From NCBI GenBank assembly GCA_964409615.1, contig CAYPDT010000001.1, forward strand, positions 243,880 through 307,879: a stretch of 64,000 bases of DNA. The letters run 5' to 3'. Position 1 is the first letter of the stretch, and the number at the start of each line of letters is the position of its first letter. Positions 11,523-63,390 of this stretch are shown here, piece after piece. The stretch is from an uncultured Candidatus Saccharibacteria bacterium. Lineage in GTDB: Bacteria > Patescibacteriota > Saccharimonadia > Saccharimonadales > AWTP1-31. The position numbers were made by a program, and so were the translations under genes. The notes beneath the pieces are model-generated. The model made no database searches, had not been told where the DNA came from, and saw only the letters and a program-made list of their open reading frames with translations.

Positions 11523-11550
11523 ACACTGCCTGCCACTCAAAAGCACAAAT

Positions 11551-11578
11551 AGAAACACCCTCGCAAGAGGGTGTTTCT
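11551..11578. terminator. Hairpin between convergent genes (bidirectional terminator candidate)
   Basis: AGAAACACCCTC-GCAA-GAGGGTGTTTCT, a perfect 12-bp stem, lying between the 9702..11522 (+) and 11577..13091 (-) ORFs. Confidence 0.6.
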
Positions 11579-13091
11579 ATTTGGCAGGCTTAGAACGCCG
11601 AGCACGGAGAACGATAGCTATCAGCCGTCGTGTACTCACGAATACAGCTAAACATACAGTAATGACAAACCCAAACGATACCAGCCACTCACCAAACCGA
11701 GTGTATAGCGTTTCAACCTGGTTGGTACGTGCCTCGACTACCACGGTAGTTACGCCACTTACTTGAGCATACTGATTACCGTTTGTATCGATAGCATAGG
11801 CAGATGCTGCATTAGCTGATTGCAAGAAATACCGAGCGTTAGAGACAGCCATAAACTTCCCAAGAGTCTTTTGTTGCCAGGAAAATAACGGTGATCCTTT
11901 GAAGGTAGCCAGCGATGCTGAATTAGTAAATAGGTTAGCACCACTTCGGGCAAAATCACGGTAGTCCTGTGGAGCAATAATGCTCGAGCAAACGGCTGAT
12001 GCTACCCGAATGTCGTCACCAATAACAAACGGAAGGAGTTGGCTCTCACCTTTTAGTACACTCCGGGCATAATCAAAATAGCTAATAGTCGATTGTTGCC
12101 CAAGTGCCCTCAGGCCACTACGCACCACGTATGGGAGGTCTTCACCACCTGGAATTAATCGATATTTATCCTGCGCCTCTAGCATGCCATCACGAGTATT
12201 ACCAAACAACATCCGGTTTAGATGGCCGGTGGTACGATTACGAAAAACCTGCTCTGAGCCAACAAAGTACGCCGGTTTGTCCCCAAGCCCTACAATCCGC
12301 GTAGCCAGATTTTCATTGGTAATTTTATCAAGCCCGTATTCTGGAAAAACCACCAGATCAACATTTTCTGGCGTAACAACCGGTACTCGTGCGCTCAAAC
12401 GCTCACTAATCAATTCTGCTCGTAGGCTCACTCCATTTGTAGTACGGTATGTAAAAAAACCTACGAACGACAGTACAGCAAGTGCTCCAATAGGCCACAG
12501 GCTGGCTTTGCGAGTAGTTTTTCGTCTCACCAGGTACACTATCAACCACACAAACCCACCAAGCCCATAAAGTCCCACAATACGGGCTGCGAATCGAAAG
12601 GGTGTAGTAACAACCGGCAAGCCGACACTACCCATTGGCAACACGTTATCGATGCTGCCCTGCGGGCCAAGCCAGATTAAAGCAACCAACCAAGCAACGG
12701 CGTATTCTGCCAGCGCCATAACAGGCACGCCAAGCACCAATAGAACCTTCAGCCCCATGCGACGATGAATGAATGCCAAAAGACGAATAAACTGCCACAT
12801 AATTAGCACCGCCAACAGAACATTGATTAACACTACAACGGTGGCTAACGCCAAGCCTTGCGTCTTAGACCCAGCAAGCTTGAGCGAGTCGGTAAAGAAC
12901 GACCATGACCACATTAAGCTATACCAGACAACAAGTGACAGTATAAACTTGCGGCGCGAAGCCCACCCAACAACCGGATTAGTGAATCTCGCAAGTTGCC
13001 TGAGCTTCTGACGAAACCTTGTGGCAATTCTCGTAGACTTTGTATGCGCATTGAAAGCTCGCGCTGACTTATCCTTGTGCTGGACACCCAT
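11577..13091 (-). CDS. lnt: Apolipoprotein N-acyltransferase-like protein (multi-TM N-terminus plus carbon-nitrogen hydrolase domain)
   Basis: Several N-terminal TM helices. CN-hydrolase triad context: VVFPEYG (Glu), DKYRLIPGGEDLP (Lys), ASAVCSSII (Cys). Confidence 0.55.
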   Translation of the reverse strand: MGVQHKDKSARAFNAHTKSTRIATRFRQKLRQLARFTNPVVGWASRRKFILSLVVWYSLMWSWSFFTDSLKLAGSKTQGLALATVVVLINVLLAVLIMWQFIRLLAFIHRRMGLKVLLVLGVPVMALAEYAVAWLVALIWLGPQGSIDNVLPMGSVGLPVVTTPFRFAARIVGLYGLGGFVWLIVYLVRRKTTRKASLWPIGALAVLSFVGFFTYRTTNGVSLRAELISERLSARVPVVTPENVDLVVFPEYGLDKITNENLATRIVGLGDKPAYFVGSEQVFRNRTTGHLNRMLFGNTRDGMLEAQDKYRLIPGGEDLPYVVRSGLRALGQQSTISYFDYARSVLKGESQLLPFVIGDDIRVASAVCSSIIAPQDYRDFARSGANLFTNSASLATFKGSPLFSWQQKTLGKFMAVSNARYFLQSANAASAYAIDTNGNQYAQVSGVTTVVVEARTNQVETLYTRFGEWLVSFGFVITVCLAVFVSTRRLIAIVLRARRSKPAK

Positions 13092-34348: not shown

Positions 34349-34373
34349 GTTTCCAAGGTCGGACCTTGGAAAC
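34349..34373. repeat. REP-like palindrome copy a (GTTTCCAAGGTC-G-GACCTTGGAAAC)
   Basis: Perfect 12-bp arms around a central G. It lies between the crp-like stop and the folD start. The same 25-mer recurs at 51844 and, nearly, at 63296 and 63340. Confidence 0.8.
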
Positions 34374-38722: not shown

Positions 38723-39403
38723 ATGAAATATCACGAACCACTCCAGGAAATGTTTACCCAATCAAAACTAATGATTTTAGACTTTGCCCTCATTCCACAG
38801 GGCCTGCCCACGACTGAGAATATTCAGCTCTTCTTTGAGACGCAAAGTAAGGCAGGCGTTAACCCACGGCTTCCAGAACATAGGCAAGTATTTAACAATC
38901 GGATGCTTACAGAAACCGGCGCACGATATTTAGTCAGTCAATATGGTGAAGATAGAAGCGCAATGCTGGCTGGCTCGTCTATTGCCGACGAAGGCCGCAC
39001 GCTACATATGGGCATCGACATCTTTTCTCGCGAACTTGAAACCGTATACGCACCCTGTGATGGCACTATTGTTCGAGCCAGTTACGAAGATCAAGACCAC
39101 GGGTATGGTCACTACCTCGTATTAAAACCGGATGATGCTGAGTTGTACTTTTTTATGGGACATTTGAGTAAAAAGCTACCTCAACTCGGTGCGGTCAAGG
39201 CTGGCGAAGCAATCGCTACACTTGGTGATTTTCACGACCAAGAAAACGGTGGATGGACGCGCCATCTACACTTACAAATTTGCACCGAGCTGCCGCCTGA
39301 GGGTCAAACACCAATTGGTTACTCCACCAAGCAAGCATTTGCCGTAAACAGCCTGAAGTTCCCTAACCCTTTCAATTATTTTCCAGATTGGCGTCTTAAA
39401 TAA
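38723..39403 (+). CDS. M23 (LytM)-family metallopeptidase-like protein, no signal peptide
   Basis: HxxxD (LHMGIDI), the APCDGTIV turn, GYGHYLVL, and HxH (HLHLQI). Confidence 0.65.
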   Translation: MKYHEPLQEMFTQSKLMILDFALIPQGLPTTENIQLFFETQSKAGVNPRLPEHRQVFNNRMLTETGARYLVSQYGEDRSAMLAGSSIADEGRTLHMGIDIFSRELETVYAPCDGTIVRASYEDQDHGYGHYLVLKPDDAELYFFMGHLSKKLPQLGAVKAGEAIATLGDFHDQENGGWTRHLHLQICTELPPEGQTPIGYSTKQAFAVNSLKFPNPFNYFPDWRLK

Positions 39404-39429
39404 ACCCGAACTTAATTCTTGAAATCAGT

Positions 39430-39579
39430 ATGCACACTACAAAACAGTAGCCAGGATTGACTCTTCGACAGCGCAGCCGGGTTGGTATGACAAGGAAATG
39501 CGATAGTGTTATTGCAGTTCAGTTGTCATACCATCCGCGCGTGAGCGGTCTGGCCTGGCTACTGTTTTGGAGTGTGCAT
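39430..39579. repeat. 150-nt extended imperfect inverted repeat (long hairpin; ncRNA or MITE candidate)
   Basis: Outer arms 39430-39455 / 39554-39579 form 26 bp with 1 mismatch. An internal loop of about 15 x 11 nt and an irregular GC-rich segment follow. The inner stem 39484-39493 / 39523-39532 is a perfect 10 bp, and a small apical hairpin GCGATA-GTGT-TATTGC closes it. Confidence 0.6.
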
Positions 39580-39763
39580 CTACGGGCTTCAGCAAATATT
39601 CATATTGAGTAAGTACTATGGGGTTGTTGCCTGAGCAATCAGCAACAGCTAACCAAAACCGGTTGTCACATCACCAAAAGAGTGCAGAGGCACTCGATGT
39701 GCGGAGGCGGTCAGCACGATACGTAACAAGGAGGCGATTATTAAGCAACAGATTAAACGAGGA

Positions 39764-40279
39764 TTGTTAGTGAGTGGTGCCGTACTGAGCATTGGCGCCG
39801 CGAGCGTTGGCACTATGGGCTTGGCACATGCCGCGACAAGCTCAAACACCAGCACCAATCCGCAACAAGGTCTTATCGACAAACTCGTCAGCAAATTCAA
39901 TCTCAACAAAGATGATGTGCAGAAGGTGTTTGATCAAGATCGTAGCGACCGCGAAGCAAATCGTCAGCAAGAGATTCAAGATAAAATTACCGCACTCGTA
40001 AAGGACGGTAAGCTAACCCAAGATCAAGCTGACAAACTTATTGCCAAAGGCAAGGAGCTACAAACGCAGCGCGAAGCAAATCGTGACGCCATGATGAATA
40101 AAACTGATGCAGAACGCAAAACAGCAATGGATGCCGGGCGCGACAGTTTTAAAAAATGGCTGAGCGATAATGGTATCGCCGAAGAGTATGGTCGACTCAT
40201 TATGGGTCATGGCCATGGTGGACGAGGCCCCGGTGGCCCACCGCCAAGTGAGTCATCGAACTCATCAACTTCTAACTAA
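39764..40279 (+). CDS. Secreted helical Lys/Asp/Gln-rich protein with Gly/His/Pro tail (hypothetical)
   Basis: Signal peptide ..SIGAASVGTMGLAHA/ATSS. The ORF-track TTG start at 39764 lacks an SD. An in-frame ATT at 39740 lies 5 nt after AAGGAGG (see findings). Confidence 0.55.
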   Translation: MLVSGAVLSIGAASVGTMGLAHAATSSNTSTNPQQGLIDKLVSKFNLNKDDVQKVFDQDRSDREANRQQEIQDKITALVKDGKLTQDQADKLIAKGKELQTQREANRDAMMNKTDAERKTAMDAGRDSFKKWLSDNGIAEEYGRLIMGHGHGGRGPGGPPPSESSNSSTSN

Positions 40280-40298
40280 CGGAGGTCAGGCACAATAA

Positions 40299-40325
40299 CA
40301 AAGCACCGTACCACGCGGTGCTTTG
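40299..40325 (+). terminator. Intrinsic terminator
   Basis: CAAAGCACCG-TACCACG-CGGTGCTTTG, a perfect 10-bp stem, followed by TTGTGTT. Confidence 0.6.
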
Positions 40326-40399
40326 TTGTGTTCTTGGCATAAGGCTACTCTTCAAGCAGTGTTATCTCTGTTATAATATGAGCTGAAAGAGAGGTTCCC

Positions 40400-42265
40400 T
40401 TGAAAAAGCTATTGAAGAATATTGCTGGATTTTTTACTGAGTATAAACAATTTGGATTTACGCTGCTCAGCGTGGTAATCGCATTAGTGCTACAACTAGT
40501 TGGTGCAAAAACTGCGGCACATATCGTACTTGCCGTGAGCGCTGGCATCAACCTTATCCCGCTACTGTGGGGTATGATTCAAGACCTACGAGTTGGCACC
40601 TATGGCGTTGACATCCTTGCTGCTACGGCTATCGCCAGCTCGCTACTCTTCCGGGAATACTGGACGGCTATTATCATCGTCTTCATGTTAACTGGCGGCG
40701 AAGCCTTAGAAGATTACGCCGAAAAACGCGCACAATCAGAGCTGACAGCGTTATTATCGCGAGCGCCTCAAAAAGCTCACGTGCTGCGTGGCCGTAAAGA
40801 AATTGATATTCCAGCTAGTCAGGTACAAGTTGGCGATAAAGTGGTCGTTAAGCCTGGTGAAGTGGTGCCGGTTGATGGGACAATTCTTGAAGGTACCTCC
40901 GACTTTGACGAGTCAAGCCTAACCGGTGAGAGTCTACCAGTCACAAAAGTTGTTAGCCAAGAAATCCTCAGCGGTTCATTAGCTGTTGATGGTTCTGTAG
41001 TGATTAAAGCCAGTAACAACGCAAGGGACAGTCAATATAGCCAAATTATTAAACTCGTTAAGTCAGCGCAGGCTAGTCGTGCGCCATTTGTGAGACTGGC
41101 CGATGTCTACGCTGTACCGTTCACGTTGCTATCATTCACCATTGCCCTAGGGGCTTGGGCACTCAGCGGAGACAGTTTACGCTTCTTGCAAGTTTTGGTT
41201 GTAGCAACTCCCTGCCCGCTTATCCTTGGAGCTCCGATTGCCTTAGTTTCTGGCATGAGCCGGGCTGCAAAACACGGTATTATTATCAAAAATGGCGGCG
41301 CTCTTGAACAACTAGCAAAGATTAAAACCCTCGGCTTCGACAAAACTGGAACACTAACCGAAGGATTACCAAAAGTTAAAAAAGTTGAAACCTTTGGTAA
41401 CTACAAGCAATCAGATGTATTGAGCTACGCTTCGGCTTTAGAACAAAAGTCTAATCATGTACTTGCACAAACAATCGTCGACTATGCTGCAAGCAAGAAG
41501 ATTAAGCCCGTTAAAGCTAAGAACATCCAAGAAATTCCTGGTATGGGACTTCGTTCGGTAGTTAGTGGCAAAACAGTATTAGTTGGTAAGTTCAATCTTA
41601 TGAAAGAAGAAAAAGTTACCCTAGCCAAGAATATTACTGCCCAAAGTATTAAAGATACCGCAGCATACGTGGCTATTGATGGCTCTTTGGCAGGCATCAT
41701 TACATTTGAAGATGCGTTGCGCCCCGAAGCTAAAAAGACCCTGGCACGCATTCAAGCTCTTGGTATCAAGCAGTTGCTCATGGTGACTGGCGATAATAAA
41801 ACCACTGCTCAAGCTATTGCTAAGAAACTTGGTATTACTAAAGTCGTCGCCGAAGCCATGCCGGGCGATAAGCTGATTGCTATCGAAAATGCCGAGAAAC
41901 AACCCGTCGGCTTTGTGGGAGATGGTGTCAACGACGCCCCTGTGCTTACGGTAGCAAGTGTGGGTATTGCCCTTGGTGCCCGAGGTTCTACTGCCGCCAG
42001 CGAGTCTGCTGATGTAGTTATATTGCAAGATGACTTAGAACATGTTGCTACCAGTGTAGATATTGCCAAGAAGACTATTCGCGTAGCTAAACAAGCAATT
42101 TTGACAGGTATCTTTTTAAGCGTAGTTTTGATGTTCATCTTTGCAAGCGGTAAATTTGCTCCAATCTATGGTGCAGCCATTCAAGAATTAGTCGATGTAG
42201 TGGTCATCATCTACGCACTGCGCGCCCACCAAGACAAAGCCTACAAAACGTTCCGCGCTCGGTAA
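40400..42265 (+). CDS. Heavy-metal-translocating P1B-type ATPase without N-terminal metal-binding domain
   Basis: TGES (SLTGESLP), DKTGTLT, MVTGDN, GDGVNDAP, and membrane motif ATPCPL. There is no HMA (CxxC) domain. TTG start. Confidence 0.85.
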   Translation: MKKLLKNIAGFFTEYKQFGFTLLSVVIALVLQLVGAKTAAHIVLAVSAGINLIPLLWGMIQDLRVGTYGVDILAATAIASSLLFREYWTAIIIVFMLTGGEALEDYAEKRAQSELTALLSRAPQKAHVLRGRKEIDIPASQVQVGDKVVVKPGEVVPVDGTILEGTSDFDESSLTGESLPVTKVVSQEILSGSLAVDGSVVIKASNNARDSQYSQIIKLVKSAQASRAPFVRLADVYAVPFTLLSFTIALGAWALSGDSLRFLQVLVVATPCPLILGAPIALVSGMSRAAKHGIIIKNGGALEQLAKIKTLGFDKTGTLTEGLPKVKKVETFGNYKQSDVLSYASALEQKSNHVLAQTIVDYAASKKIKPVKAKNIQEIPGMGLRSVVSGKTVLVGKFNLMKEEKVTLAKNITAQSIKDTAAYVAIDGSLAGIITFEDALRPEAKKTLARIQALGIKQLLMVTGDNKTTAQAIAKKLGITKVVAEAMPGDKLIAIENAEKQPVGFVGDGVNDAPVLTVASVGIALGARGSTAASESADVVILQDDLEHVATSVDIAKKTIRVAKQAILTGIFLSVVLMFIFASGKFAPIYGAAIQELVDVVVIIYALRAHQDKAYKTFRAR

Positions 42266-51843: not shown

Positions 51844-51868
51844 GTTTCCAAGGTCCGACCTTGGAAAC
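51844..51868. repeat. REP-like palindrome copy b (GTTTCCAAGGTC-C-GACCTTGGAAAC)
   Basis: Identical arms to copy a with the central base complemented, meaning opposite orientation. It lies between the sortase stop (51885) and the tsaB start (51816). Confidence 0.8.
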
Positions 51869-63295: not shown

Positions 63296-63362
63296 GTTTC
63301 CAAGGTCCGACCTTGGATTACACTTGTGGTATTTTGATTTTTCCAAGGTCGGACCTTGGAAA
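63296..63362. repeat. Inverted doublet of REP-like palindromes (copies c and d) upstream of the RAYT gene
   Basis: Copy c (63296-63317) is GTTTCCAAGGTC-C-GACCTTGGA. Copy d (63340-63362) is TTTCCAAGGTC-G-GACCTTGGAAA. They are separated by a 22-nt spacer and have opposite central bases (opposite orientation). Confidence 0.8.
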
Positions 63363-63390
63363 CTAAGTTTCAGTGATATAGTATGCCTGT

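Follow-up and report, generated by a model that had tools for sequence, protein, structure and literature searches.

A 150-nt palindromic hairpin behind a peptidase gene in a Candidatus Saccharibacteria species and its absence from sister lineages

The locus and the anatomy of the hairpin

The window, which is the whole 64-kb stretch of Candidatus Saccharibacteria DNA analysed here, carries a gene for an M23-family peptidase-like protein, the homologues of which are spread throughout the Saccharimonadales. The stop codon of this gene occupies positions 39401-39403 and a long hairpin begins 26 nt further on. Genes encoding a secreted protein and a P-type ATPase follow on the same strand. The features of the locus, in window coordinates, are listed below.

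38723-39403, plus strand: M23-family peptidase-like protein, 226 aa (Pfam PF01551, E 8.5e-12)
39404-39583, plus strand: extra DNA relative to sister lineages, ~165-180 nt (spacer of 26 nt, hairpin of 150 nt and ~4 nt)
39404-39429, plus strand: spacer of 26 nt between the peptidase stop codon and the hairpin
39430-39455: left arm of the hairpin (terminal inverted repeat), ATGCACACTACAAAACAGTAGCCAGG
39456-39483: left irregular GC-rich segment, forming with 39533-39553 a degenerate palindrome that contains indels and mismatches
39484-39493: left half of the inner stem, GGTATGACAA
39494-39522: apical region, including a 7-bp hairpin (39499-39516) with a GUGU loop
39523-39532: right half of the inner stem, TTGTCATACC
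39533-39553: right irregular GC-rich segment, placed from the predicted fold and the half-to-half alignment
39554-39579: right arm of the hairpin (terminal inverted repeat), CCTGGCTACTGTTTTGGAGTGTGCAT
39584-39739, plus strand: 5' leader of the downstream gene, ancestral and conserved between lineages, outside the insertion
39655-39716, plus strand: leader stem-loop, a CACAU/AUGUG helix enclosing a GAGUGC-AGAG-GCACUC hairpin
39730-39742, plus strand: Shine-Dalgarno GGAGG, 5-nt spacer and probable non-canonical start codon ATT, placed from the alignment
39740-40279, plus strand: secreted protein of ~179 aa without a Pfam family
40400-42265, plus strand: P-type ATPase, downstream of the secreted-protein gene

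An earlier note, made from the sequence alone, had counted the 360-nt gap behind the peptidase gene among the largest non-coding stretches, and it is indeed the largest internal ORF-free stretch of the 64-kb window. The true gap is most likely ~336 nt, given that a non-canonical ATT codon (39740) is the most likely start of the downstream gene. Two short ORFs in the region were rejected as genes: a 51-aa ORF (39457-39612), considered as a small or toxin gene, has no homologue and a poor ribosome-binding context, and the frame of a 50-aa ORF (39618-39770) is shifted by a 1-nt indel between strains.

The long imperfect hairpin that the earlier note had drawn at 39430-39579 was recovered with its arms, inner stem and apical hairpin all present. 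The closing stem is of 26 bp with one mismatch, as described, and its arms (39430-39455 and 39554-39579) are 96% complementary and separated by 98 nt. The perfect 10-bp stem was found between GGTATGACAA (39484-39493) and TTGTCATACC (39523-39532) and can be extended to 14 nt at 93% complementarity, and the small apical hairpin corresponds to the 7-bp UGCGAUA-GUGU-UAUUGCA at 39499-39516, which includes one G.U pair. The irregular GC-rich segment is also seen in the predicted fold (39456-39483 and 39533-39553). The proposed internal loop of about 15 x 11 nt is only approximate, as weak 3-4-bp helices pair part of it in the predicted fold, where the internal loops are small (3 x 3, 4 nt).

Palindromy extends over all 150 nt, beyond the ends alone: when the reverse-complemented right half is aligned to the left half, 58 positions match, 13 mismatch and 8 columns hold gaps. 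Pairing is almost perfect in the outer 26 bp and in the inner 10 bp and degenerate in the middle. At the left border AATCAGT precedes the first hairpin bases ATGCAC, while at the right border the last bases GTGCAT are followed by CTACGGG; the sequence right after the hairpin is CTACGGGCTTCAGC. Within the 64-kb window the arms match only each other.

Taken alone, the 150 nt are predicted to fold with -85.7 kcal/mol (z -11.0) as plus-strand RNA, -75.3 kcal/mol (z -9.7) as minus-strand RNA and -53.3 kcal/mol (z -12.0) as DNA, and none of 200 shuffles matched the stability of the real sequence. Among 2,554 overlapping 150-nt segments of the 64 kb, the most stable starts at 39426 (-77.3), the next best reaching -64.3 in a distribution with a mean of -34.3 and a standard deviation of 7.2. 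The plus-strand RNA is 10 kcal/mol more stable than the minus-strand RNA. The transition mismatches between the two halves all yield G.U on the plus strand (4 in stems) and none on the minus strand, in agreement with the 5 and 0 G.U pairs, respectively, of the two predicted folds. This asymmetry weakly favours function, or tolerance, as a plus-strand RNA, which would be the tail of the peptidase mRNA; the 4:0 count is of small numbers and not significant, and a C-to-T mutation bias could look alike.

A separate palindrome of 25 bp, GTTTCCAAGGTC-N-GACCTTGGAAAC, is unrelated to the 150-nt hairpin and occurs in four intergenic copies where none is expected by chance. Exact copies number two, the remaining ones deviate by 1 and 3 bases, and two of the four sit 43 nt apart. 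Possible roles are those of an operator or of a conserved terminator/REP-like unit. The copies are located as follows.

34349-34373: 25-bp palindrome
51844-51868: 25-bp palindrome
63296-63320: 25-bp palindrome
63339-63363: 25-bp palindrome

Distribution of the hairpin and the ancestral leader

Several JGI, ENA and Logan assemblies carry an identical hairpin sequence and the species is fixed for the element, which is also present in a strain that has diverged by ~2% (strain B; sample SRR22387748, the left side in contig L037 and the right in L041). The 26-nt spacer is unchanged in strain B, and the 151 nt of the element recovered from it contain one SNP, T39448C, in the left arm. The pairing partner, A39561, is unchanged and the right arm is identical, so that the substitution makes a C.A on the plus strand. 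Variation in the element does not exceed that around it: the single SNP compares with ~3 expected, a difference that is not significant. As this one informative SNP is uncompensated, the strains provide no covariation evidence for the hairpin.

The extra DNA was defined by alignment with the corresponding contigs from sister lineages (L011, L026, L039, L032 and L038), and its left border is uncertain by ~15 nt. Four sister lineages were compared, with 73-76% identity in the peptidase. The gene order peptidase then secreted protein is kept in those represented by L011/L026-31, L039 and L032-33. In all four, a conserved block (CTTCAG..ATCTTCATATTGA..TACTATG, also written CTTCAG..TTCATATTGA) is found 3-16 nt past the peptidase stop codon, whereas in the window it starts at ~39587. 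The gap is ~214 nt in the sister lineages compared with 360 nt here, and the orthologous site is without the hairpin in L011, L026, L039, L032 and L038. The first ~16 nt of the spacer may be ancestral, judging by a weak likeness to the 14 nt that follow the stop codon in L038.

In the peptidase tree, the hairpin-bearing species is sister to the clade of the four lineages. In the outgroups (L012-L016) a convergent gene lies directly after the peptidase and there is no hairpin. Similar sequence was sought in L011-L016 and none was found. A single gain in the species studied here would be the simplest reading of these sequences; formally, the ingroup alone does not favour a gain here over a loss in the sister clade, the two being equally parsimonious.

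The peptidase-ATPase junction is a rearrangement hotspot. L038 (3681-3896) lacks the secreted-protein gene and has the ATPase directly after the peptidase, with the conserved block after the stop codon kept. Other lineages have AhpC and EF-hand/dockerin genes inserted ahead of the ATPase.

The leader of the downstream gene contains a stem-loop in which both helices show compensatory changes across four lineages, with 5 pairs changing on both sides. In the alignment 92% of cells are paired, compared with 19-51% when the partners are slid, and the leader covariance model matches this leader alone in each lineage. The stem-loop has no Rfam match and is a candidate for a new cis-regulatory RNA of the secreted-protein/P-type-ATPase locus. 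The ATT start assigned to the secreted-protein gene is most likely on the basis of the alignment, in which the codon at this position is CTG in L011 and L039 and ATA in L032. The GGAGG ahead of this codon is conserved, and the codons for a Lys-rich signal-peptide n-region upstream of the listed TTG also appear to be conserved. The secreted protein has 185 homologues.

Within the leader, a run of A residues (39676-39679) differs by a 1-nt indel between strains (L025, L041), which joins a spurious upstream ORF to the secreted-protein gene. Because of this indel, gene callers give a protein of 220 aa in some strains and of 154-171 aa in others.

Possible identities of the hairpin

The earlier note had compared the arrangement of closing stem, central bubble and terminal stem with 6S RNA, and had seen no other 6S candidate in the window. 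The latter holds, since an Rfam scan of the 64 kb detects no 6S RNA; at gathering thresholds the scan of the whole window returned five tRNAs and nothing else. The 6S reading itself is not supported. No Rfam family, 6S included, matches the hairpin at gathering thresholds or at E<=10, the only match at E<=10 on either strand of 39300-39900 being a spurious 14-bit snoRNA match in the leader (E=7.7); neither a promoter nor a terminator was found, and the sequence is missing at the orthologous sites of the relatives. The weak promoter-like TTGGCG-N18-TTAATT is present at 39388-39417, where it starts within the peptidase coding sequence and extends beyond the stop codon, but it fails a sigma-70-type scan (0 sites). 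Consensus scans gave 0 sites resembling a promoter and, on the plus strand, none resembling a terminator.

The hairpin resembles 6S RNA (RF00013 and related models) in being rod-like, with ~150-180 nt, a closing stem, internal loops and a terminal stem. It differs from 6S RNA in having no covariance-model match, no conservation in relatives and no promoter or terminator of its own, and in that the 'central bubble' is small and mostly paired in the predicted fold. The near-perfect 26-bp closing duplex is also unlike the irregular helices of 6S RNA. A housekeeping RNA would not be missing, as this sequence is, at the orthologous site of every related lineage examined, and annotation of the hairpin as 6S RNA is not advised. 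Neither 6S RNA nor MITEs of Saccharibacteria or other CPR bacteria were the subject of any paper returned by the literature searches.

The note had also suggested a miniature inverted-repeat transposable element (MITE). This suggestion stands in so far as the element has terminal inverted repeats (26-nt arms, 96% complementary), is small and non-coding (150-180 nt) and varies in presence and absence, being found in two strains of one species and not in four sister lineages with the same flanks. It is intergenic and lies right behind a stop codon, and its six-frame translation has no relative among 5.8 billion proteins. The 64-kb window, which makes up ~9% of a ~0.7-Mb genome, contains no second copy, and the exact arm 21-mer has 0 matches in 185,579 GTDB species genomes and 0 in the JGI metagenome set, the source species not being among the DNA collections searched for copies. 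The core (inner-stem) pattern has no match in viral contigs and blastn against plasmids and phages gave no match. Three metagenome-contig matches to the core pattern were rejected as chance, as their flanks are unrelated, and a relaxed 17-mer version of the arm pattern matched IMG/VR three times, by chance and with one arm only. No unambiguous target-site duplication is present: the flanks share no direct repeat, and further out there are only 2-3-nt repeats (AC..AC, CTT/CAG), which are not significant. The extra DNA is asymmetric, as 26 nt of it precede the hairpin and ~4 nt follow. A cognate transposase was not seen either, and the arms occur nowhere else in the 64-kb window.

Small palindromic MITE-like repeats that are co-transcribed with neighbouring genes include the Correia elements of Neisseria and the ERIC/IRU elements of the Enterobacteriaceae, which are present in tens to hundreds of copies per genome. 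The hairpin resembles these families in size (100-160 nt), in its near-perfect terminal inverted repeats (26 bp in Correia) and in being an imperfect palindrome throughout; like them it is non-coding, intergenic beside genes, present or absent between related lineages and expected to form an RNA hairpin in mRNAs. It differs in having no sequence similarity to them and no TA or other target-site duplication, in the one copy found here and in its host, a reduced-genome CPR bacterium.

On balance, we give an even chance to the hairpin being a MITE-like foldback insertion that is specific to this lineage and is transcribed as part of the peptidase mRNA. According to this model, a small non-coding palindromic DNA, possibly once mobile, would have inserted just 3' of the M23-peptidase stop codon and upstream of the ancestral leader of the next gene, and its architecture would be of the Correia/ERIC type, in which a degenerate palindromic core is enclosed by terminal inverted repeats, here near-perfect over 26 bp. 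Transcription would most likely make the element part of the peptidase operon mRNA, as its 3' end or as a spacer between cistrons, because both flanking genes are on the plus strand and there is no terminator between the peptidase and the element. This part of the transcript is predicted to fold into a long RNA hairpin, at which 3' exonucleases would be expected to stop and double-strand-specific RNases to cut. Blocking or cleavage at the hairpin would decouple the two transcription units.

Other explanations of the hairpin were weighed against the foldback insertion. The palindrome might never have been mobile, having arisen once, either from a template switch during replication (an inverted duplication) or from foreign DNA that was inserted, and would have been decaying since. 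This is consistent with its being single-copy in all collections searched, with the want of a target-site duplication and a transposase, and with palindromy over the whole 150 nt (the 58 matches, 13 mismatches and 8 gap columns given above). Neither half, however, resembles the orthologous intergenic DNA of the relatives or the rest of the window, which leaves a local inverted duplication without a visible source, and the uneven distribution of mismatches fits conserved transposase-binding ends or selection on the stems; a non-mobile origin is considered unlikely. Selection for a cis-acting terminator or insulator, ending the peptidase transcript before the next promoter and leader, would fit the very stable fold and its location 26 nt past the stop codon and between two transcription units on the same strand, the peptidase gene being without another terminator. 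An intrinsic (Rho-independent) terminator is likewise a stable hairpin soon after a stop codon, but the element is ~10x longer than the genome's own terminators, which are short canonical hairpins, and is followed by no U-tract on either strand. The lack of a U-tract means that it is not a standard terminator, and the relatives have no hairpin at this site; a selected terminator or insulator is considered highly improbable. The least probable of the explanations, and an extremely improbable one, is an independent small RNA gene (6S-like, trans-acting or protein-binding) with a promoter of its own. The extended rod-like fold with internal loops, the failure to detect 6S RNA elsewhere in the window and the G.U asymmetry, which suggests that the plus-strand RNA is the relevant molecule, are in its favour; they are outweighed by the absence of an Rfam match even at E<=10, of a sigma-70-like promoter or intrinsic terminator on the plus strand, of the hairpin at this site in all related lineages and of the sequence in the 185,579 species genomes, as well as by a near-perfect 26-bp duplex that is atypical of 6S RNA and a sole arm SNP that is uncompensated.

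Canonical intrinsic-terminator-like hairpins are found at 40297-40327 (perfect 12-bp stem) and 11546-11583 (perfect 17-bp stem). The hairpin at 40297-40327 lies between the secreted-protein and ATPase genes and could attenuate ATPase expression.

Contig breaks at the apex and their implications

Six Logan contigs assembled at k=31, from six samples and both strains, all end exactly at 39498. The right-hand Logan contigs start at 39525 (three contigs), 39524 (two) and 39500 (one, L021), and one JGI contig starts at 39522. Positions 39499-39524 are missing from all k=31 Logan contigs except L021, which begins at 39500. The contigs broken at the apex otherwise end in tRNA genes only, i.e. at k-mers shared with other DNA. 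Further contig ends coincide with the borders of the extra DNA, at 39405 (L008) and 39581 (L025). Three JGI contigs span the hairpin cleanly and are identical to the window.

No repeated 30-mer able to cause the break was found in the window sequence, and a de Bruijn-graph artefact arising from the sequence itself was rejected for this reason. Inversion between the 26-bp or the 10-bp repeats was also rejected, as the branches it predicts (39455/39456 or 39493/39494) do not match 39498/39525. The abstract of PMC4057610 describes palindromes as problematic for most sequencing approaches, and a palindrome-specific sequencing artefact is a plausible cause of the apex breaks.

A DNA-level switch or a repeated core would provide another cause, with the apex (~39499-39524) existing in at least two forms in every population, through variation that is programmed or driven by the hairpin, or the inner ~85 nt (39469-39554) being present at a second locus. 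More than one form or locus of the apex or core would explain why k=31 assemblies from at least seven samples and two strains break at the same bases. The identical left-hand break at 39498 in six contigs of two strains, the clustering of the right-hand starts at 39522-39525 with one at 39500, the restriction of other contig ends to tRNA genes in a window without a repeated 30-mer, and the ends at the element borders (39405 and 39581) all point in this direction. However, three JGI contigs pass through with window-identical sequence, no alternative apex sequence or second copy was observed, the breaks appear to lie off the inverted-repeat ends that simple inversion requires, and a sequencing artefact is plausible given the difficulty with palindromes described in PMC4057610. 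A switch or repeated core is thus regarded as distinctly unlikely. As in invertons, 26-bp inverted repeats flank a 98-bp segment inside which assemblies break; unlike invertons, the breaks (39498/39525) are at the apex and not at the repeat borders (39455/39554), no recombinase was identified, and the contigs show one orientation and never the opposite.

It is very unlikely, on the same evidence, that the hairpin represents the first recognised foldback mobile or hypervariable element of the Saccharibacteria, each natural population having more than one form or locus of its apex or core. If it did, a lineage believed to have almost no mobile DNA would contain an active DNA-level element. The hairpin is of modest interest unless the apex breaks reflect real DNA heterogeneity or extra copies. 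It systematically fragments the short-read assemblies of this species. The covarying leader, together with the conserved non-canonical start codon, is a better regulatory lead than the adjoining hairpin.

Saccharibacteria genomes are tiny and streamlined with very few repeats, and for this reason a foldback insertion acquired recently would serve as a useful marker for the gain of DNA in this lineage. If the foldback reading is true, the hairpin would be an ordinary object, a small palindromic insertion, in an unusual host, and would provide a natural test of the effect of a long 3' hairpin on a CPR operon.
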